From NCBI GenBank assembly GCA_017560905.1, contig JAFZEA010000008.1, forward strand, positions 1 to 60,489: a stretch of DNA of 60,489 bases, written 5' to 3'. Position 1 is the stretch's first letter. Every line of letters begins with the position of its first letter. The notes under the pieces were generated by a model. The model made no database searches and had not been told where the DNA came from. It saw nothing but the letters and a program-made list of their open reading frames with translations. The stretch is from Clostridia bacterium (GTDB taxonomy: Bacteria > Bacillota > Clostridia > Oscillospirales > QAKW01). This document shows positions 8,317 to 59,757 of this stretch, one piece after another. Made by a program: the position numbers and the translations under genes.

Positions 8317-8432
8317 AAATCAAAAAATATTTATTGCCCGAGGGCAAACATAAAAAAGAAAAGCGACCGTAAATATTCGTGCAAAGCGAAAGCGTCCCCC
8401 AAGAGGCACACTCCGTAAGGAAGTGTGCCTCA

Positions 8433-8637
8433 GTTTTATTCGCCAAAGGCGAGTTGTATTGCTTCGCAGTGATATTCGGCTACCGCCGAGTGTTATTCGC
8501 TTCGCGAGTTTAGGGGCGAATAAAATATCACTAAAACCGTCAGGTTTTAATATCACTTTCCTTTTAAAAATATCTCGCCATAGGCGAGGATTTTCAAAAG
8601 AAAATATCACTGTGAGACCTGTCTCACAATATCACTT
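8433..8637. repeat. Motif-and-hairpin array A (AGTGATATT / AATATCACT)
   Basis: Four degenerate AGTGATATT units, each followed by a different short hairpin, then four to five AATATCACT units separated by hairpins. Confidence 0.8.
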
Positions 8638-8687
8638 ATTATTTTTTTCTTTGAGATAGGTAAAATTTTAAGGTATGTAACCCACTA

Positions 8688-21692: not shown

Positions 21693-22248
21693 GTCAAAAC
21701 TGCGCTATATGGCCAGAACGTATGATTTTGAGCGGGGCTATATTGCCAAAAGCAATAACGCCATTACCTCCAAGGTCATTACTCACCCTCTTTTTAAACA
21801 AGCCAAGACCATATTTTGCTACGTTTCCATGAACGACGAGGTGGACACCCGTTCTATTATCAAGTATGCCCTGCGTGAGGGCAAGAGCGTATGCGTGCCG
21901 CTCTGCGAGGCAGAGGGCAAAATGACACCCTATATCATTTACTCCTTGGGAGAAATGAGCGAGGGCGCCTACGGCACGCCCGAGCCGCCGGTCGGCGCGC
22001 CGATGGGAACGGATATCGATCTGTGTATCGTCCCCTGTATGTGCGCTGACAAAGAGGGCTACCGTGTAGGTCACGGCGGCGGCTACTACGACCGCTATCT
22101 GGCAAGCTTTGAGGGCAAAAGCATGCTGCTCTGTCGTGACGTCTTACTGCACGACAGCGTACCGAGAAAAGAGCACGATATCAAATGTGATATCATCATT
22201 ACCGAGAAACAGACGGTGTTGTGTTCCGAAACACAACACGCGATATAA
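21679..22248 (+). CDS. 5-formyltetrahydrofolate cyclo-ligase
   Basis: YVSMNDEVDT, IVPC..D.EGYRVGHGGGYYDRYL, HDIKCD..ITE; start at 21679 or 21685. Confidence 0.92.
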   Translation: MSMNKSKLRYMARTYDFERGYIAKSNNAITSKVITHPLFKQAKTIFCYVSMNDEVDTRSIIKYALREGKSVCVPLCEAEGKMTPYIIYSLGEMSEGAYGTPEPPVGAPMGTDIDLCIVPCMCADKEGYRVGHGGGYYDRYLASFEGKSMLLCRDVLLHDSVPRKEHDIKCDIIITEKQTVLCSETQHAI

Positions 22249-22420
22249 ATCCCTTTCGGGATTTGCGATATTCCCTATGGGAGCGATATTTGCCGATGGC
22301 AAGCGAGATGCCCTGCGGGGCGCGAGAGATTTATATCATATCGCATCTTTGCTTTAGCAAGGATATATCGAATTTTCCAAAAGAAAATATATCGCTCTGT
22401 GCCTCGGCACAGAATATCGC
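22240..22420. repeat. Motif-and-hairpin array B (GCGATAT / ATATCGC)
   Basis: Five GCGATAT-like units separated by four different hairpins, a short centre, then four ATATCGC-like units separated by three hairpins. Confidence 0.85.
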
Positions 22421-22458: not shown

Positions 22459-22680
22459 AATTTTAAACTTATTCGTTTTTGGAAAAATCAATCAAGCAAA
22501 ATCTCCGCTTGCTTGATTTTGCCGCCAAGCTCGGTCGTGGAATTTGGGGACGCAACCCCTCGCCTTCACACCTGCTCGGCTCAAGGAGCAGTCCCCAAAC
22601 GGCAACTGTGCTCCGTACCTGCCGTGTGCACACCAAACAAGTATGCGGGTGGAGCCATGCAATAAGAAGATGTTTCGTTT

Positions 22681-51070: not shown

Positions 51071-51253
51071 AGTTTTTCTTCCTTTTTTCTCATTGCTTTC
51101 ATTTTAGCACCATTTCGGAGTTAACGCAACCGTTCCGACGAAAAACCTACAATAATCCGCAAAAATTCTCTTCACCCACGACATACATGCGCTCTCTTTC
51201 TTCAACTTCTAAAGAAAGCCGCCCTGCAATGCAGGGCGGCCTTTGGCAGCATA

Positions 51254-51607
51254 TCATTTTCTATTTTCTTTTGCAGTTTTAATTGAAGCAATCAGTAAAA
51301 TTCTGATAGTAGAGCAGGTTTTGTTGATTTTCTTATATGTTGATTCATCTATATAGGCGGTTTTATGTAGCATTTCAAGCCATTTGCCCGTTTCACTTGC
51401 TTCTTTTAAAGCGATTTCAAGTTTAGCAATAAAATCAGCACGACTATGACCATATTTGCTCTCGGCAATGTTCGCACAAACGCTTGTGGCACTTCTGCCA
51501 ATTTGATTTGAAATGATAGTTTCTTTTTTATGTCGCAGTTCTTTTACCAAATTCAGAGCATCAACAGATAATTGCATTGACAAATCGGAAAGTTTATCTT
51601 CTTTCAT
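51254..51607 (-). CDS. Four helix bundle protein (23S rRNA IVP-like family)
   Basis: NQIGRSATSVCANIAESKYGHSRADFIAKLEIALKEASET..WL; GAGGTG RBS before ATG 51607. Confidence 0.92.
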   Translation of the reverse strand: MKEDKLSDLSMQLSVDALNLVKELRHKKETIISNQIGRSATSVCANIAESKYGHSRADFIAKLEIALKEASETGKWLEMLHKTAYIDESTYKKINKTCSTIRILLIASIKTAKENRK

Positions 51608-51632
51608 TTCTATCACCTCAGGCTTGTTATAC

Positions 51633-51822
51633 CATACGTTTGCGTGAAGCACAATAACGTTTGCCGAAGGCAACACTGTTTATGCGAAGCATAACACTGT
51701 TTGCGATTTGTCGCAACTTCGTTTTGTGTCCGCTTGTGCCATCAACGATGTTCTCGCTTTTGCTCGAAATGATGTTTACAACTAAAGTTGCAAAACAATG
51801 TTGTGTCCTGCGGACACAAACA
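51633..51822. repeat. Motif-and-hairpin array C (AACATCGTT-like / AACGATGTT)
   Basis: AATAACGTT, AACACTGTT x2 and AACTTCGTT separated by hairpins, then AACGATGTT, AATGATGTT and AACAATGTT separated by hairpins. Confidence 0.75.
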
Positions 51823-51832
51823 CCACCAAACA

Positions 51833-51861
51833 AAAAACCGACCCTATTGGGTCGGTTTTTT
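51833..51861 (-). terminator. Terminator of the tRNA operon
   Basis: AAAAAACCGACCC-TATT-GGGTCGGTTTTTT. Confidence 0.85.
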
Positions 51862-51864
51862 GTT

Positions 51865-51949
51865 TGGTGGGAGCGGGTGGATTCGAACCACCGAAGTCGT
51901 CGACAACAGATTTACAGTCTGCCCCATTTGGCCACTCTGGAACACTCCC
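51865..51949 (-). tRNA. tRNA-Tyr (GTA)
   Basis: GGGAGTGTTCCAGAGTGGCCAAATGGGGCAGACTGTAAATCTG...GGTTCGAATCCACCCGCTCCCACCA; long variable arm, encoded CCA. Confidence 0.97.
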
Positions 51950-51953
51950 ATTT

Positions 51954-52028
51954 TGGAGCTGGTGAACGGAGTCGAACCATCAACCTGCTGATTACAAATC
52001 AGCTGCTCTGCCATTGAGCCACACCAGC
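51954..52028 (-). tRNA. tRNA-Thr (TGT)
   Basis: GCTGGTGTGGCTCAATGGCAGAGCAGCTGATTTGTAATCAGCAGGTTGATGGTTCGACTCCGTTCACCAGCTCCA. Confidence 0.97.
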
Positions 52029-52275: not shown

Positions 52276-55200
52276 TTACTCAGCCTCAGATACCAGAGTA
52301 ACCACGTCGCTGTATACCGTGTGGCTGACACCGGAAACCTCATAGGTCAGATACATTCTGCCGTAGCGGCTGACACCGTAACCTACGTTGTGCATACGCA
52401 GTGAGTAGATCAGGTTAACGCTGTCCAGACCGGTTGCATTGTTCTCGTAAGATTCTTTCTGTCCGACAGTCTTGCCGCCAATGCTGTAGGTGGCAACCGT
52501 CTTGCTATCGCCGGTAGCTACGTAAGCGGCACAAGCCTCATCGGTAACCGCCTCGGCAGTGTTGCCATAGAACATACCGTAATCGGTGATCTTAAAGTTG
52601 GTCTTGGCGAGCAGATCGGAAATATCGTTGCCGTTGGTGGAAACGATACGTCCCTCCCAATAGGTGGAGAAGGGCTTGGTGTAACCTGCGCCTGTCTCAT
52701 CTTCGACACGGCAATTTTCGTCAAGGATGTCAACACCGATGGGTGCTCTGACAATAGTAACGGTGTAGGTATCGCCGATTACAGTGCCGTCACCCTGTGT
52801 CAGAACAGCGGTAACGGTAGTGGTCTCGCCGGTCAAGGGGAATCCGTTGTAGTAGTAAACTGTATTTTCACCGTCAACCACAGCAGCGCGGATCATCATA
52901 CCCTTAGCAGTATTAAATTTGTAGTAATCGCTCGCAGTGGAGATGTCGGTGATCAGCAGATTCTCAGTATCAGCTACGCTACTGCCGGAGAGAGGAGCAT
53001 CGATGATGGAGAACTGATCACTGTTATCCTCGTTGGCTTTATAAGAAGTGCCGTCGGGATAGATAATGGTACTGGTGACATCACCGTCGGTCAGTACTAC
53101 GGGAACTGCACTTCCGTTTGCACGAACTGCAATGCCGGTACCGTCGTGTTCGGTCAGACCATAGGTCTGACGGAAGCCGTCAAAGATGTTGCCTGCAGCA
53201 ACGATCGCAACATCGGTTTCATTGATAATTGCATACTTGACGGGTGCGGTATCAGTATTGATAAAGGTGTTGCCCAAAATGGTAACAACATCGGCCAGCC
53301 CGGCAATGCGCAGGAAACCGTTAACGGTTTCGCAGCCTTCTGCCGTTTCAAGAGTATTGTTGGTAATGCTGATAACAGAACCTTCCATATTGGTTGCTGC
53401 AACAGTATCAACGATTATGCCGTAAAGGTCGCCTTCGGTTGCAACGATATGGTTGTTATCGATAGAAGCATTGAGGACAACAGGAGTTGTGGTGTTGAGA
53501 TCGGCCAAGTTAACGGCGCCGCCAACGATGGAGTTACCGCTGACAACAACACCGAAATCATTTTCAATGTTGCTCGTACCGTCGGAAGAAGCAGGAGAAA
53601 CATAAACAGCAGATGCAGCTGCGCCAACTTCAACGTAGTTGTTGGTCATAACCATATCTTCGATATGTCTTCCGACAAACATATGTCCTACAGAATCAGC
53701 GGTCATTACCAAATAGTTGTCATGAATCTCGGCTTCGCTTCTGACAGTGGTCTTAAAGCCGAAGGGCTGCCCATTTTCTTCATGCTGTTCGATGGGACGG
53801 GCAAGGTCGGTGGAGCAGTTGATGAGGATAAACTTATCAACAACTCCTGTTCTTGCGGTGCCGGTGTCGGTAACAACGGACTCGCCGGCAAAGGTTACAC
53901 CGTCAATGGTCACACTGTTCTGATAGTCGATATTCAGAGAAACGTTATAGAATACGGTTTCCTTGGACAGATCGGCACGAGCGGGGTTCATAGCATCAGC
54001 AACACCGTCAACATTGGTATCCGCAACGGCACTGATGCCGCTCTGTGCGCCATAGAAGATGTTGTGAATGCCGCTGGAGGTGGAATCGCCGATAGATTCG
54101 GAAACTCCTGCATACTCTTTTGCAAACAGATAGATATGTCTTTCGTTGTCAACAACGGGAACAGCGGCGATCGTTCCGAAGATGTTCTCGCCAACTACGA
54201 AGTTGACCAATGTATCTGCGCCGTTAATATTGACGGTCTTGGCATAGTTCAAGCCATCAAAGTGATTCTTGACAGCAGGATCAAAGAACTGCTTACCTGC
54301 AAGAGGCGTTTCGTTTACGTTTACTGAGCCCCGCAGCTGACCGGCCACACCTACGGTGTAAGTAACCGTACGATTGAGATTCTTGTGAGCAACGACCATC
54401 TTAAAGATATCACCGGGTTGGATGGTTTCGCTAACGACGGAGCCATCCATATTGGCAAAGCTGTAAATATAGGCGTTGTCCGAACCGAATTCGGTTTTTT
54501 CATTGATTTCGGAAACGGTCAGATCGTCGGTATAGTCTATCAATGCAATGTTTCCGTCGGAGATATCGCTGTATACCTCAGTACCGTCATTGTCAAAGGA
54601 CAGCGGATCGGCCGTCACATATTTGATGGGGCGATAGTCACTGGCGCGGATAGAGAAATCGTCGCTCAGGATAACGTCGGACATAGTAACCTTGCCCAGT
54701 TTGGGAGCAATAAAAGTGCCGTCGAGATCCTTATAGATGTTATCGGAAACGTCTACGTTGGCGCTCATACCGCCGAACAGAACGCTCTTAACACCGTAGC
54801 CTACAAATACGTTACCGGAAATATCAACGCTGCGATATTCGCCGGAACCGGCATCGATAACGCCACCGAAATCGGAAGCGGTGGGATAAGAAGACGCGGT
54901 CACCTCGTTGTTGGTAAAGGTGATCTCTGTGATGGCCATATTCTCAGCACCGGCAGAGAAAGAAGAATACAGAGGATCGCGGGTGTTATTGCCGGCTGCA
55001 GGGTCAATACCGCAATCAACAGCCTTGTTGTTGTTAAAGGTGATCTCGATCTTGTTACGGGTCTCAGCGGTAATGTTCTCGGTACCGTCGTGATATACAC
55101 CGTACAGATAGTTGCTGGGCATATTCAGGTAGCTGTTTTCACAGGTATAGCTGATGTCGTGCTTACTGGCATTGTTATAGCCGGTGGTGGGGTTAATATA

Positions 55201-58200
55201 GAAACCAACCAGATCCTCAGTTCTATCATTCTTATTAATAATGATAGCAGAATCGTCAATGTGGATCTCATCAGTGTTTACCTTACCGAGATTTACCCAA
55301 GTGGTATCCGTAGGATCAGCCTGGAGGTAAGTGCTGTTGATGTTCAGGATCATGTGCATCTTAGCAGTGTTCTTGGTAATGTCGGTGCCGACACTGCCGG
55401 ACTGAGCTCTGAAGCTGAACAGACCGTTACTGGCGCTGGCAACCTTGTAATCAACAATCAGACAGTTTTCAAAGGTAAAGGTTGCAGTGTTATTGTTGCT
55501 GTAAACGTAGGAAGCGTTGGTATCGTGGTGAGTACCGAAGTTGACAGCACCGGTACCGGCAATACCGTCGATAATGACCTCGTCATTATCGTCCAAAATA
55601 CCGTTCATGATGTAGAAGCTGATAGAAAATACAGCTTCGTTAGCAGTATCGGTAATGTCACGCAGAGCTGCACCGGTTGCGGTGTCAGCAGCGGCTACAC
55701 CGGCCTGGGGACCCAGAACGACAACCTTATCGGTTGCAACACCGGGACGAGCGATACCGAAGTTAGAGCTGTTACCGCCGGAAGCATACAGACCCTCGTT
55801 GCTATAACCGGTCTTCATATTGTAAACACCGGGGAAGACCAGAACGGTAGATGCACCGGAGGTATTGGCGCGGTACATATTGATGGCGGTTACGCCATAG
55901 GTGAACTTATAAACAATGCCGGTGGTGGGCATTTTAGCATAGAACTTAGTGCCTTCCTGCATTTCGAGGAAATCACCGTCAGCTGTAGGAGCAGTGGCTT
56001 CCATCAGTTCGGGATGGGTGGCGCGGTTGATGGGATCGGTCAGAGCTTCGTCGGTGTAAGCAAACGTTGTCCAGTCGGGAGCCACGGCAACGAATACGCC
56101 TTCATTGGCGTTGGCACGACCCTCATACAGAGCAGAGGTAGTAATGTCGATGTAGGTCTCACCTGCTACATAGCCCAGACCGTTATTCTCCCAAGGATTG
56201 GAGGAATATACGTCAACTGTCCAGGTAACGGTGTAGCCTTTATAGGTTACGGGAACGGTCAATACGTCGCCGGAAACTGCGGAGTAAACACCGTTAGCCA
56301 GAGTACCGCCGTTGGAATCGAGAGTGATCTCACCGATGGTGCCGCCGTTAGCTGCAAAAGCGGTGGCAACATTGTACTGTCTGCCGCCGGCGGCAGTGAT
56401 GGTGGCTTCGAACTCGTCCAGATCGCCGTAGGCTTTATCCAGAACGATCTCTTCAAATTCGCCCTTGCGCAGGTTGAACTTGCTCATATCAATGGTCTCG
56501 GTCCCATTCTCATCCGTCCAGTAGATGGAGGACTTTTCAAAACCGGAACCGTAGAATTCATCATTGGTATTCAGAACATAAAGCTCGTTATTAACGGAAT
56601 AGAAGTTATTGTCTACGTTCACGTTGCTATCGGGCTTGAAGTTCCAGGGCCAGGGGTAGTTGTACAGCTTGTTGCCGCTGACATCCCGAACCTTATGCTT
56701 GGCGCCATTGTTTGCTTCACCGATGACCCATGTGTCGGCGAAGTTTTCACTCTTGACAACGTTGTTCTTGAAGGTAATACCAACGGAGTTATCAGGTGTC
56801 TCCTGATTGGTAGAAGTCTGAATGATGTAAGCACCGTCCCAATTGTTAAAGGTGTTGCCTACAAAGTATAACTGATGGCCCTTGGCCAGCAGATCGCCGT
56901 TGGGAATGTCTTTGTAAGCACCGGTGAACCAAGGCTTTGCGGTGCTGGTGCCGTCAATGTAGCAGCCTTCCATAAACCAACCGATGGTCAGAGAAGGTAC
57001 GGACATACCGGCAGGATCTATGGGATAGTAGGAAACACCACTTTTCTTGGGATTGATGTTTGCAATGGTACAATCCTTAAAGCGGATGTAGGTAGCCTGA
57101 ACGTACATATTATAGTTGACTTTGCTGGAATCGGTAAAGTAGCTGTCGTTTACGTAGATCGGGCAGTTGTTGGCACCATAATCTTTGTACTCCGGGTCGG
57201 TCTTGGGAGCGGATATCAGGTTATGACCGCTGGACTTAATGTACATATCTGCCATATTCAGACGGGAATGTCTTTGATTACCATATCTACCGTCAACAAC
57301 TATAGTGTGTGTGACGCCGCCCTCCTGATTTGCGGTCAGACCACTCAGTGTGAGGAAGGTGTAGGTGGACCACTCAGTATCAAGCACGATTTTGCCGATG
57401 ATAGCTTCTGTAGCAGGATCAACGGAACGATCAGCAGACAGGTCAGCGGAGCCCTCAACGGTGGGATCAACGCCGAACTTGGGACCTACGATAGCAACAC
57501 TGTCCTTAACGTTTAAAGTTGTGGTATGGGTACCGGGCATTAAAAGGATAACTTCCTCCAAAAATGCAGGATCAGTGTCCAGGGCATTTTCAATGTGAGG
57601 AACATCGACGGCTTCATATGCCTTTGCCATACTGACGTAGAAATCAGCGTTATCAGCAGTGTAGGTGTCACCGTTAAAGGTATAGGTACCTACACCGGTG
57701 GGGTCTACAATGAGATATTTGGTGGGCTCGTTGAGGCTGTATACCACGATAGCATGGGTATTTCCGGCCTCATACTGTGCCTTAACGTACAGGGGGCCAT
57801 CTGCGCTGAAGCCCTTTTCGATAGTTGCAACAGAGTCGGTACAGGCAGGATCGCTGAATACACCCAGATACTCAACGCCCTCATCCTTGAAGACAAAGAG
57901 GTCCTCGGTATTGTAGGTCACACCGTCTTCGGGAAGAACGGTGATAGAACCGACAGTTTCAGTACCGAATTTTTCAATGTAGTAGGTGTTATAGCCGTCC
58001 AGTACAGGAACGATCAGAGAGTTGAGTACCAGCAGGTCCTGCGTGGTCTCCTGTACGGTGAACAGATCGAAAACACCCGCATCCTTGTTGTCGGATGCAT
58101 AAACATCATTTAGAACAGAAGGTTTTGAGGTAGGACGAAGGGCAAGCTCGTTTGTGCGAGGCATACGGATCTGGCCGTCGTGCGACATAAACAGGTTGGC

Positions 58201-59757
58201 GGAAAGATCTATCAGCCCGGTGGATCCTACGACCCAAATGTCAAATACAGGTTTTTTATCGGCGGATGCAACAATGGTGTTGCCCGTAATGGTGAGAGGG
58301 GCACCGTCAGCAAAATAGCCGTTGCCAGTATCGACGAAGCCAACCTCTGAGCGAGAGGTAACTTCTACAGCCTCAGCATAGTTGTTCTCAATGTTAACGC
58401 CAACTTTTATAGGATTACTCGCTTTGGAACCTTGCCGATAAGCACAGAAGTAGTATGTATAACCGCGGACAAAGTTGTCCTCAATGGTGATCTGTGCATC
58501 GGAGTAAGCACTGAACTGCGCATTGTGAATACCAAAAACGTTGCTCACAGCCTCATAGTCGAAGGTACAGTTCCGGACTACAGCGTTGAAGTCATTTCTG
58601 TAATCGCCGAGGAATGCAATATCACTCACCGCAGCAGCGGAGGGCGCGAAGTCGAGTTCAAGACCATTAGCACCTGCGCCGATGGAGTTGATGTTGTTAA
58701 TAACAACGTTCTCCATCAGAATATCGTTACCCTGCAGAATGTTCTCGCTAGCGATTTCGGTCTCCTCCACGTTACTACCGTCCATATAAGAGTTGGTCAG
58801 ATGGAACACGGTGACAACGCGGTTTGTATTATTGTTGCCACCGATGCTAAACATTACGTCGTTGTCAATGTTGTCGAGACTGAAATAAACATTATTCATA
58901 TACATGGCGCTAAGGTATGTGTAACTTTTGTTCGTCACAACGTCCTGATGCAGCTTGGCTTCGCCACTCAGAGCAATACCATCCATACGCCATACTCCAT
59001 CCAGCGGGAGCCGGATGGTATCAGTAAATACCATTTCGGTTTCGGGATCGGCACTTCTGTCGTTCATCAGGGTGGTATCACCTACGACACCGGCAGAGGG
59101 GCTTACACCTGCCTGAGGACCAAAGAAGTTTACGTTGGTGCAATCAGCCTGTGTACAATCGGGTGTGTCAACCCCTGCGGGCCAATTATAGTCGGTTTCC
59201 TTAGCACTAGTGCTGGTAGCATGGGTCATCTCGCCGGGGAACAGCAGGACATACCAGTTGTCGGGAGTAGAATGACGGATATCCTCCATCATATCGGCCC
59301 AACCGGTATAAGTGCCGGCGTCGGTCACCACATTACCACCTAAATCGGTGGTGTCAGCGTACTGCTCGGCACCGTGAGCGTTTACACCCCACTGCAAGAG
59401 GTAAACGTCGCCGTTACCCCAAGTCTCGCCGTCGCCGTACTCGGCGAGGAAGTAGTCGCCTTCAGCGTAGCCAAGGTCCTCAGTCCAGTTAAGGTTGAAG
59501 GCCTTGAAATTTTCGCCGGGCAGACGAATGGTCTTGCCGGCATACTCAGATACATCGAATCCTGTTCCATCTTCCAGCTCGATATAGCCGTCTTCAGGAA
59601 CTATAACTGTGGTAGCAGCATTCAGCTCTTCGTATGCTGCTGTTCTGTCAACAGCAGTTTCTGCTGCCGACACGGGAAGAACGATACCGGTAAGCATACC
59701 TACACACATCAGTACGCTCAGCAGCAGGCTCAACCCACGTTTGAAGCTTTGTCTCAT
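52276..59757 (-). CDS. Giant secreted protein (2493 aa) with four repeated probable beta-helix modules
   Basis: Sec signal peptide (..PVSA/AE), AAGGAG RBS, repeated GPQAGV..R....E.VF modules followed by Asn-rich I.NN.F turns; no SLH or LPxTG anchor seen. Confidence 0.85.
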   Translation of the reverse strand: MRQSFKRGLSLLLSVLMCVGMLTGIVLPVSAAETAVDRTAAYEELNAATTVIVPEDGYIELEDGTGFDVSEYAGKTIRLPGENFKAFNLNWTEDLGYAEGDYFLAEYGDGETWGNGDVYLLQWGVNAHGAEQYADTTDLGGNVVTDAGTYTGWADMMEDIRHSTPDNWYVLLFPGEMTHATSTSAKETDYNWPAGVDTPDCTQADCTNVNFFGPQAGVSPSAGVVGDTTLMNDRSADPETEMVFTDTIRLPLDGVWRMDGIALSGEAKLHQDVVTNKSYTYLSAMYMNNVYFSLDNIDNDVMFSIGGNNNTNRVVTVFHLTNSYMDGSNVEETEIASENILQGNDILMENVVINNINSIGAGANGLELDFAPSAAAVSDIAFLGDYRNDFNAVVRNCTFDYEAVSNVFGIHNAQFSAYSDAQITIEDNFVRGYTYYFCAYRQGSKASNPIKVGVNIENNYAEAVEVTSRSEVGFVDTGNGYFADGAPLTITGNTIVASADKKPVFDIWVVGSTGLIDLSANLFMSHDGQIRMPRTNELALRPTSKPSVLNDVYASDNKDAGVFDLFTVQETTQDLLVLNSLIVPVLDGYNTYYIEKFGTETVGSITVLPEDGVTYNTEDLFVFKDEGVEYLGVFSDPACTDSVATIEKGFSADGPLYVKAQYEAGNTHAIVVYSLNEPTKYLIVDPTGVGTYTFNGDTYTADNADFYVSMAKAYEAVDVPHIENALDTDPAFLEEVILLMPGTHTTTLNVKDSVAIVGPKFGVDPTVEGSADLSADRSVDPATEAIIGKIVLDTEWSTYTFLTLSGLTANQEGGVTHTIVVDGRYGNQRHSRLNMADMYIKSSGHNLISAPKTDPEYKDYGANNCPIYVNDSYFTDSSKVNYNMYVQATYIRFKDCTIANINPKKSGVSYYPIDPAGMSVPSLTIGWFMEGCYIDGTSTAKPWFTGAYKDIPNGDLLAKGHQLYFVGNTFNNWDGAYIIQTSTNQETPDNSVGITFKNNVVKSENFADTWVIGEANNGAKHKVRDVSGNKLYNYPWPWNFKPDSNVNVDNNFYSVNNELYVLNTNDEFYGSGFEKSSIYWTDENGTETIDMSKFNLRKGEFEEIVLDKAYGDLDEFEATITAAGGRQYNVATAFAANGGTIGEITLDSNGGTLANGVYSAVSGDVLTVPVTYKGYTVTWTVDVYSSNPWENNGLGYVAGETYIDITTSALYEGRANANEGVFVAVAPDWTTFAYTDEALTDPINRATHPELMEATAPTADGDFLEMQEGTKFYAKMPTTGIVYKFTYGVTAINMYRANTSGASTVLVFPGVYNMKTGYSNEGLYASGGNSSNFGIARPGVATDKVVVLGPQAGVAAADTATGAALRDITDTANEAVFSISFYIMNGILDDNDEVIIDGIAGTGAVNFGTHHDTNASYVYSNNNTATFTFENCLIVDYKVASASNGLFSFRAQSGSVGTDITKNTAKMHMILNINSTYLQADPTDTTWVNLGKVNTDEIHIDDSAIIINKNDRTEDLVGFYINPTTGYNNASKHDISYTCENSYLNMPSNYLYGVYHDGTENITAETRNKIEITFNNNKAVDCGIDPAAGNNTRDPLYSSFSAGAENMAITEITFTNNEVTASSYPTASDFGGVIDAGSGEYRSVDISGNVFVGYGVKSVLFGGMSANVDVSDNIYKDLDGTFIAPKLGKVTMSDVILSDDFSIRASDYRPIKYVTADPLSFDNDGTEVYSDISDGNIALIDYTDDLTVSEINEKTEFGSDNAYIYSFANMDGSVVSETIQPGDIFKMVVAHKNLNRTVTYTVGVAGQLRGSVNVNETPLAGKQFFDPAVKNHFDGLNYAKTVNINGADTLVNFVVGENIFGTIAAVPVVDNERHIYLFAKEYAGVSESIGDSTSSGIHNIFYGAQSGISAVADTNVDGVADAMNPARADLSKETVFYNVSLNIDYQNSVTIDGVTFAGESVVTDTGTARTGVVDKFILINCSTDLARPIEQHEENGQPFGFKTTVRSEAEIHDNYLVMTADSVGHMFVGRHIEDMVMTNNYVEVGAAASAVYVSPASSDGTSNIENDFGVVVSGNSIVGGAVNLADLNTTTPVVLNASIDNNHIVATEGDLYGIIVDTVAATNMEGSVISITNNTLETAEGCETVNGFLRIAGLADVVTILGNTFINTDTAPVKYAIINETDVAIVAAGNIFDGFRQTYGLTEHDGTGIAVRANGSAVPVVLTDGDVTSTIIYPDGTSYKANEDNSDQFSIIDAPLSGSSVADTENLLITDISTASDYYKFNTAKGMMIRAAVVDGENTVYYYNGFPLTGETTTVTAVLTQGDGTVIGDTYTVTIVRAPIGVDILDENCRVEDETGAGYTKPFSTYWEGRIVSTNGNDISDLLAKTNFKITDYGMFYGNTAEAVTDEACAAYVATGDSKTVATYSIGGKTVGQKESYENNATGLDSVNLIYSLRMHNVGYGVSRYGRMYLTYEVSGVSHTVYSDVVTLVSEAE

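Follow-up and report, generated by a model that had tools for sequence, protein, structure and literature searches.

What is a small four-helix-bundle gene doing directly behind a transfer RNA (tRNA) gene, and does the array of short repeats that precedes it belong to it? The question was raised by a stretch of 60,489 nucleotides (the window) from a Clostridia bacterium (GTDB lineage Bacteria; Bacillota; Clostridia; Oscillospirales; QAKW01; assembly GCA_017560905.1, contig JAFZEA010000008.1, positions 1 to 60,489), in which a gene of the S23p family (PF05635) and a repeat array, here called array C, follow tRNA-Tyr on the minus strand. An initial annotation of this DNA had proposed that the gene and the array, together with two gene-less arrays (A and B) elsewhere in the window, form a small mobile or regulatory module. 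Our analysis indicates that the stretch at 51,254 to 51,861 is probably one copy of an insertion cassette of ~600 bp with a cis array, a mobile cassette related to the intervening sequences (IVS) with an open reading frame (ORF) known from ribosomal RNA (rRNA). The cassette is made up of a ~190-bp cis element, its own sigma-70-type promoter and a 117-aa S23p (PF05635) protein. In the cis element, a word of 7-9 nt alternates with hairpins of free sequence in two opposed blocks, one block carrying the word and the other its reverse complement. The cassette settles at the foot of terminator hairpins, mainly behind tRNA genes, and sometimes duplicates the hairpin. It occurs in many types, each with its own word and its own protein clade. 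Gene-less arrays are nearly confined to genomes in which such a protein is also encoded.

The relatives analysed came from 61 genomes, 37 of which harbour PF05635 homologues (up to six each). Set 1 was reduced from 72 loci, through 73 matching ORFs, to 63 genes of 36 relatives and this genome (G000), each of at least 100 aa and with an upstream flank of 250 nt or more; loci with truncated genes or at contig ends were left out, as was one duplicate row. Set 2 was drawn from public species genomes, in which there were 590 relatives; the best 80 were taken, and 74 of these had at least 300 nt upstream. As controls, 250 ORFs were sampled from the 697 of this genome (233 with enough flank). The mirrored-array score records a 7-mer (at most one mismatch) that is repeated in one part of the 330 nt upstream and whose reverse complement is repeated in the part that follows. 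A score of at least 3 was reached by 53/63 genes of set 1 and 67/74 of set 2, compared to 22/233 controls; a score of at least 4 was reached by 28/63, 43/74 and 1/233 respectively, and the single control adjoins a real array. This score is crude and array types were partly assigned by eye. In this genome, each of the three PF05635 genes (3/3) has the same series of features before it, namely tRNA, terminator, array and promoter, and one of the three arrays is of a hairpin-less mirrored heptamer type. True exceptions to the pairing were few, and in one Bacteroidaceae contig (L166) a run of N masks part of the upstream array, so that the locus is only partly readable. The initial annotation had staked its proposal on arrays being more frequent next to these genes than next to random genes, and on this comparison the link stands. 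The link between gene and array is real, and together they are one unit.

Transcription of the locus runs on the minus strand through a promoter, tRNA-Thr, tRNA-Tyr, a terminator, array C, a putative promoter, a ribosome-binding site (RBS), the 117-aa ORF and a hairpin with a T-rich tail, in that order, and the cassette lies between tRNA-Tyr and a DEAD-box helicase gene. The features of the locus, followed by the two gene-less arrays, are as follows.

51636-51822, no strand: array C, ~190 bp between the tRNA-Tyr terminator and the four-helix-bundle gene
51803..51817, no strand: first (capping) hairpin of array C, inverted repeats; one arm can alternatively pair with the array centre
51744..51802, no strand: gene-distal half of array C, with plus-strand words AACGATGTT, AATGATGTT and AACAATGTT and two hairpins between them
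51723..51733, no strand: centre segment of array C, 11/11 complementary to 51810-51820, a long-range stem that closes the gene-distal half and is present in the centroid fold
51641..51723, no strand: gene-proximal half of array C, with plus-strand words AATAACGTT, AACACTGTT (twice) and AACTTCGTT; direct repeats
51641-53, 51662-72, 51681-93 and 51702-15, no strand: hairpins of the gene-proximal half of array C, read from the sequence
51626..51654, minus strand: putative promoter of the four-helix-bundle gene, TTGTGC-17-TATAAC with a TG-extended -10; the -35 lies inside the last side hairpin
51254..51607, minus strand: four-helix-bundle gene (PF05635 / TIGR02436), 117 aa, ATG at 51607, RBS GAGGTG at 51619-51614
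51211..51240, minus strand: post-gene hairpin with a T-rich tail (likely terminator), right-hand end of the cassette, read from the sequence
51823..51870, minus strand: intrinsic terminator of the tRNA operon, 22-nt arms that are 100% complementary, then a T-run
51865..51949, minus strand: tRNA-Tyr (GTA), from ARAGORN, Rfam tRNA 52.1 bits; the cassette lies in its 3' flank
51954..52028, minus strand: tRNA-Thr (TGT), from ARAGORN, Rfam tRNA 67.9 bits
52058..52086, minus strand: promoter of the tRNA-Thr/tRNA-Tyr operon, TTGACA-17-TATAAT, 12/12 matches; context, outside the cassette
8430-8640, no strand: array A, word GTGATAT, gene-less
22240-22420, no strand: array B, word GCGATAT, gene-less

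The stem of the tRNA-operon terminator takes in the tRNA 3' end, and the cassette begins at the terminator foot. Array C adjoins the terminator directly, as had been claimed. The promoter proposed for the gene is present as described, though its -35 matches in only 3/6 positions and it was not listed by the promoter scan; in most related cassettes a TATAAT-type -10 stands at the equivalent place. The AT-richness noticed at the outset was also seen in the numbers (35-37% GC in the gene vs. 47-57% in its neighbours). Gene queries spanned 51254-51610, one codon longer than the 117-aa coding sequence. There is no rRNA in the window. Among public sequencing runs, the stretch was contained only in three DNA runs, all from one study. 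Public RNA runs containing 5-6% of the sequence words searched for gave coverage on the tRNAs only and were uninformative for expression of the cassette. Upstream of the tRNA operon lies the gene of a 2493-aa secreted repeat protein (52276-59757, minus strand).

On the plus strand, array C harbours four AAC-NNN-GTT words at 51653-51723 and three words of the complementary form at 51744-51802. These 9-nt words alternate with seven short hairpins of unrelated sequence, located between and beside the words; perfect hairpin starts number 9, compared to 1.9 ± 1.8 in shuffled sequences (0/500 shuffles reach 9). Array C is a degenerate member of its class, and its homologues in relatives, which have the opening sequence and the words in common with it, are cleaner. 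Arrays A and B follow the same grammar with other words. The mirrored architecture first noticed in all three arrays, with a different motif in C, was thus confirmed, and so was the standing of A and B as gene-less relatives, which also rests on sub-threshold matches to the Rfam model Gut-1 described below. The count of 4-5 units per array, proposed as matching a pentameric bundle, was not confirmed as a fixed number: units per block vary from 3 to 5, array C has 4 + 3, and a rule of five units for a pentamer was rejected. The family is abundant, as had been suspected from three copies in 60 kb. The array detector returned 22 rows in this 1.0-Mb genome, of which 14 were judged real by eye and 8 rejected, and it missed arrays A, C and one hairpin-less array. 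The genome assembly is 60% complete and fragmented, often breaking exactly at these repeats.

Some further observations concern arrays A and B. A conserved GC-rich capping hairpin flanks array A and recurs beside homologous arrays on contigs C18, C24, C27 and C39. The ORF upstream of array B extends into the first unit of the array. To the right of array B there is a separate repeat (22478-22627), copies of which are located at C10:17360-17511 (84% identical) and C10:26246-26319 of this genome.

The protein matches PF05635 (E 5.8e-25, 88 bits against a cut-off of 33.8) and TIGR02436 (95.8 bits against a cut-off of 24). Its AlphaFold2 model (pLDDT 94.3) is a single bundle with helices at residues 5-26, 31-50, 56-82 and 88-114. 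Foldseek aligned it with 2RLD (BT_0352, 49% identical; TMq 0.86-0.90), with 2GSC (Xcc0516; TMq 0.83) and with 4DWL, the accessory protein Avd of diversity-generating retroelements (DGR; TMq 0.77, 11% identity), so that both the family membership and the relatedness to Avd suggested by the initial annotation are upheld. No function has been assigned to PF05635, a very large family whose members have been known from rRNA intervening sequences since 1993. The family motif GxxRxxxSxxxNxxE, given in passages of PMC3936711, is represented in helix 2 by R-x3-S-x3-N-x2-E: R38, S42, N46 and E49 are invariant or nearly so among 20 representatives, and the G of the published motif is Q35 in this protein. 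The structure entry 2RLD contains five chains, and Xcc0516 is described as a homopentamer in parts of PMC4990558 and PMC3936711; by likeness to these two relatives, the 117-aa protein is probably a homopentamer. The family libraries for defence (PADLOC) and phage (PHROGs) gave no match.

Across relatives, the words are near-identical inside an array and differ between arrays (GTGATAT, GCGATAT, GTGAAGT, ATGAAAT, AATGATG, GTGATGC, TATATCAT, GCTAAAT and others), and they lie ~20-24 bp apart. Within one protein clade both blocks vary in concert (AACATCGTT/AACGATGTT, AACATCATT/AATGATGTT and AACTTCATT/AATGAAGT), and side hairpins are swapped or shuffled even where the proteins of the cassettes are 86-93% identical. 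In 85 arrays, blocks with YGAW words had 96 T..C loops vs. 10 G..A loops, and blocks with WTCR words had 77 G..A loops vs. 28 T..C loops. Loop polarity therefore follows word orientation, indicating that each array is built from two runs of a single polar unit in opposite orientations, placed either head to head or tail to tail. The G..A loops consist of three or four bases, with GNRA tetraloops among them and also triloops, and some G..A triloops are very stable in DNA. In every array type examined, the first word and the first hairpin arm are complementary to the array centre, and this pairing co-varies between subtypes. Mismatches in the side hairpins, compared as G-T vs. A-C in a strand test, numbered 12 vs. 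5 and 6 vs. 7, which is not significant. Two layouts were found. In the first, that of the window cassette, both blocks lie upstream of the gene, which has its own promoter; in the second, the gene lies between the blocks and a promoter is not visible (L019, L022, L033, L084, L087, L099 and L171). Hairpin-less arrays, in which tandem 7-nt units face their reverse complement, were found at L002, L021, L028, L031, L086 and L098. As a side observation, G005:C3:3593-3738 contains a tandem run of five identical 19-nt units, each a word with its hairpin, which points to recent duplication of the unit.

The word tracks the protein clade. Cassette pairs with a word 6-mer in common had a median protein identity of 72% (224 pairs), compared to 51% in the other pairs (1987 pairs). 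The co-variation of motif and protein for which the initial annotation had proposed a test was found to this extent, and it is compatible with plain co-inheritance; since tracking of the clade is what co-inheritance alone gives, a recognition code is not claimed. A strict word-to-protein code was rejected: the word TGATAT is common to distant proteins, and most pairs with different words and similar proteins proved to be offsets of one word.

These features would also suit an array that serves as the control region of the gene. The protein would then be an autoregulator acting on duplex words, solo arrays would be further operators, insulators or terminators, and mobility would be secondary. 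The end of the array always coincides with the -35 of a good promoter, the spacing of the words and their tracking of the protein clade agree with such a role, and arrays and genes co-occur at the genome level (see below). However, the free-sequence hairpins are kept by compensatory or wholesale replacement and their loop polarity is tied to word orientation, which is unexpected for a duplex operator. In the second layout the blocks stand on either side of the gene and there is no promoter between them, and the solo arrays are in many cases located between convergent genes or behind terminators, positions that offer no gene to regulate. We know of no member of PF05635 that is a DNA-binding regulator, and we consider autoregulation improbable as the main role of the array.

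Each block also resembles a catalogued RNA. Gut-1 has been an orphan RNA motif since 2010. Its model (RF01706) comprises four UGAAAU-type words with three hairpins between them, which is exactly one block of the arrays of this genome. In this genome there were 23 half-array matches to Gut-1 at E <= 1, nine of which exceeded the 50-bit cut-off (50.5-72.8 bits); arrays A (42.2 bits) and B (36.9 bits) remained below it. Array C gave no Gut-1 match at E <= 1, and its layout nevertheless fits the model of about four words and three hairpins, with 4 words and 3 hairpins in the gene-proximal half and 3 words and 2 hairpins in the distal half. Any other Rfam identity for array C was rejected, as there were only sub-threshold chance matches driven by the terminator. 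Among 20 representative cassettes, six were matched by Gut-1 at E <= 0.001, and these are the ones with a word near GUGAAAU. In the main text of Weinberg et al. 2010 (PMC2864571), Gut-1 is listed among non-coding RNAs, with human gut sequences as its only known source and without mention of a neighbouring gene. That main-text description does not include the two-block build, the flanking tRNA or the four-helix-bundle gene.

The array might accordingly be thought to act as RNA, each block being a Gut-1-type non-coding RNA and the protein its RNA-binding partner, like Avd without a reverse transcriptase, with a cellular role such as RNA processing near tRNA operons. Besides the Gut-1 matches, this reading can draw on the RNA fold of array B (z -6.5), in which nested 7-bp word helices have a side hairpin at each step, on the relatedness of the protein fold to Avd, which is found in an RNA-protein complex (8UB7, 8UBE), and on the processing of intervening sequences of the PF05635 family as RNA by RNase III, reported in part of PMC4990558. 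By contrast, the array lies between a strong terminator and the gene promoter, and no promoter that would transcribe it was seen. The mirror symmetry gives the same product from either strand and suits DNA at least equally, and the limited reach of Gut-1 (array C and 14 of the 20 representatives unmatched at the thresholds above) likewise speaks against it. We give the RNA reading a small chance only.

Most arrays have no four-helix-bundle gene. At the genome level, a strict ATATCAC x3 pattern was present in 30/37 genomes with a homologue and in 2/24 without, and a CATCATT x3 pattern in 11/37 and 0/24 respectively; reversed-pattern controls gave 0 in all genomes. Inside genera, ATATCAC x3 was found in 5/6 vs. 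1/6 genomes (g2) and in 12/15 vs. 0/3 (g3). Kin genomes are not independent, and these co-occurrence figures are therefore counts, not tests. In a further explanation, arrays and bundle genes would be independent of each other: repeats similar to repetitive extragenic palindromic (REP) sequences or miniature inverted-repeat transposable elements (MITE) would favour terminator flanks, and selfish passenger genes would enter the same safe sites. The arrays do outnumber the genes (23 Gut-1 half-matches vs. three genes in this genome), small genes of other kinds also follow arrays, and PF05635 genes insert in many places, 18 of them in cas loci according to passages of PMC3936711. Independence is very improbable when set against the fixed order and distance of array, promoter and gene, the agreement of array type with protein clade, the duplicated hairpins that flank array and gene jointly, the bracketing layout that places the gene between two blocks, and the coupled presence and absence inside genera.

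The initial annotation had suggested a RAYT (REP-associated tyrosine transposase)/HUH nuclease or a reverse transcriptase as a partner of the arrays, and the 61 genomes did not bear this out: neither tracks the arrays. The search for partners covered Y1 and reverse transcriptase only. Y1/HUH genes were present in 28/61 genomes. Six genomes (G020, G025, G026, G027, G028 and G039) had 10-22 array pattern hits and no Y1 gene, and G000 had one weak Y1 match (42 bits). Reverse transcriptase (PF00078) gave no match in this 60%-complete genome and was present in 15/61 relatives, unrelated to array content.

A same-strand tRNA ends less than 420 nt upstream at 52/74 loci of set 2 and 31/63 genes of set 1, and the upstream tRNAs of set 1 have 13 identities. 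In this genome, 8/17 of the arrays that could be placed follow a tRNA and its terminator; six of these were placed with ARAGORN and two, at contig ends, by eye. A comparison of tRNA-Tyr 3' flanks took in this genome and 22 further loci. In G000, G015 and G025 the flank is occupied by cassettes of three types, each with a different word; G008 and G029 have an array accompanied by another small gene there, and G013 has half an array. There is no array in G004, G007, G009, G011 and G021; one genome has a remnant, and in three the contig ends. In eight sister genomes (L069, L070, L071, L072, L040, L041, L065 and L073) a conserved GC-rich element of ~170 nt follows directly after the terminator and starts with the complement of the tRNA 3' end. 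A transfer-messenger RNA (tmRNA) was rejected as its identity, as ARAGORN (tRNA/tmRNA) and Rfam found nothing. Of the empty tRNA-Tyr sites that the initial annotation had proposed to look for, sites without an array were thus found in five genomes; an exact empty/filled pair of close strains was not found among the genomes compared.

Other signs of movement were seen at the cassette edges. Cassettes with 83-93% identical proteins and a common word sit behind different tRNAs. At L006, L020, L086 and L090, a second copy of the hairpin that stands left of the array (20-50 nt, in two cases with the last tRNA bases) directly follows the gene, and partial tRNA 3' ends are present at the left cassette edge at L002, L005, L059, L094 and G000 C1:2085. 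Beyond the stop codon there is no homology among relatives. The same build was found in genomes of Victivallales, Bacteroidaceae and Acholeplasmataceae and in one faecal contig labelled as phage. The several cassette types at the tRNA-Tyr flank, the duplicated hairpins and the AT-richness of the gene agree with the earlier claim of a mobile module that lacks a transposase of its own, within a search for partner genes confined to Y1 and reverse transcriptase.

Several individual loci showed further rearrangements. The terminators between different tRNAs and arrays have a common apical sequence (TTTGTCTACC-AGACAAA type) and differing lower stems (examples at L009, L012, L016, L024, L030, L080, L082, L089 and L093, and at G000 C1:2096 and C16:15339), so that the terminator tip seems to be part of the cassette. 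Behind tRNA-Pro, at G000 C1:1734-2633, there is a tandem of two cassettes. It opens with a TATATCAT-type array, after which come a partial tRNA end, a terminator, an array of GATGAAATC type, a promoter and a gene for 97 aa without a Pfam family. At L002 (G000 C26), the last ~40 nt of tRNA-Met (1632-1672) are duplicated 210 nt downstream (1883-1916), immediately before the terminator and the hairpin-less array that belong to a cassette with a four-helix-bundle gene. A whole cassette is duplicated in tandem at L108 (G024:C104), and copies of one array block flank the gene on either side at L085 (G038:C6). Small variable genes in the same direction (lipoproteins, immunity-like proteins) often follow the bundle gene (L009, L012, L016, L003, L029 and L027), suggesting that the cassette may head small accessory operons.

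Among known systems, the closest likeness is to the ORF-bearing IVS of 23S rRNA (Coxiella burnetii, Leptospira), whose S23p ORF belongs to the same protein family. According to passages of PMC4990558, the ORF of the Coxiella IVS is preceded by two to three GACAGAT heptamers, and the element has a terminal stem of 28 bp. As far as this description goes, both are small elements (~0.4-0.6 kb) with complementary arms made of, or next to, tandem 7-nt units. Both are placed in or beside stable-RNA genes and have no transposase, and the related loci of the second layout also have the gene between two blocks. However, the cassette described here lies behind a tRNA terminator and is not inserted in a 23S rRNA helix. 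Both of its blocks are upstream, nothing complementary follows the stop codon and the ORF is not enclosed by arms; the arms are interrupted by free-sequence side hairpins, the gene has its own promoter, and gene-less copies are dispersed in the genome.

Avd is similar in its four-helix-bundle fold and as a small basic protein that works with structured nucleic acid, but here there is no neighbouring reverse transcriptase, a template/variable repeat pair was not seen, and sequence identity is as low as noted above. REP sequences and bacterial interspersed mosaic elements (BIME), including the REP doublets called REPIN, likewise consist of hairpin repeats that are scattered between genes in opposed orientation and are often found at gene ends. 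In the arrays described here, by contrast, hairpin sequences vary within and between arrays, only the linker word is kept and it differs by array, and, in contrast to the REP/RAYT pairing, Y1/HUH genes do not track the arrays. Compared with transposons and MITE, the two blocks are inverted copies of a polar unit, and the duplication of 20-50 nt of terminator hairpin flanks four cassettes; no transposase was found in a search that covered Y1 and reverse transcriptase. In the convergent heptamer repeat pairs of Xanthomonas and Nostoc (PMC4692102), tandem 7-nt units face their reverse complement between genes, as in the hairpin-less cassettes, but most arrays described here have side hairpins between units; the terms S23p, IVS and four-helix bundle occur 0 times in that publication (Rehm et al. 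2015). The protein family, the IVS heptamers (PMC4990558), Gut-1 (PMC2864571), PF05635 in cas loci (PMC3936711) and the convergent heptamers (PMC4692102) were thus already in print, and a full-text literature search found no publication that joins the arrays to a PF05635 protein.

Several points weigh against a mobile cassette in which the protein acts on its array. A helical bundle of 117 aa is not known to have nuclease or recombinase chemistry. Array C itself is a weak mirror (strict mirrored-7-mer score 2, RNA fold z -1.95). L123, whose protein is 82% identical to that of the window, has no array, and some arrays are followed by small genes of another kind, one of them YcxB-like and two with no Pfam family. 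G002, G038 and G043 have 10-14 ATATCAC hits and no protein at least 74% identical to the array-associated clade, and TGATAT words stand beside proteins that are only 43-45% identical to each other, a loose matching of array and protein. Co-occurrence in genomes could reflect common descent, with arrays as decayed cassettes. The exact empty/filled pair is lacking, as stated, and at the site orthologous to that of array B, four genomes of the same genus have the upstream gene followed by other genes; synteny is broken there, so that the junction is not readable.

With these points taken into account, the mobile cassette related to ORF-bearing rRNA IVS is still the reading that we prefer, and a mechanism can be outlined for it. 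The bundle protein, a pentamer in the crystals of its relatives, would bind the repeated word beside the hairpins and so act on the arrays. We lean towards binding on unwound or single-stranded DNA, as the mirror symmetry with strand-polar units and the position between terminator and promoter favour DNA over RNA. Binding would serve the keeping or copying of the element, and host enzymes would cut and join. Two candidate routes would both duplicate the hairpin, namely template switching at hairpins and the integration of a circle through a crossover in the hairpin. That the protein binds its array directly and in a word-specific manner may be the case, and we put this forward tentatively and with some doubt. 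A wider proposal seems unlikely to hold as a whole: the pentamer would read the word on unwound strands, the side hairpins presenting the words side by side, and would direct transposase-free copying to other hairpin feet (terminators, rRNA helices), so that rRNA IVS, Gut-1 and the mirrored heptamer arrays of many phyla would form one protein-guided mobile class.

PF05635 and Gut-1, both catalogued without a function, turn out to be halves of one unit. The prediction that follows is that the protein should bind its own array of words and hairpins. If this is true, it would offer a first handle on how cassettes spread without a transposase, and it would bear on the preference for the flanks of stable-RNA genes and on the nature of the abundant mirrored short-repeat arrays of many bacteria. 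For annotation, the cassette already explains many loci recorded as a hypothetical protein with an odd repeat, and many contig breaks, behind the tRNA genes of gut Clostridia.

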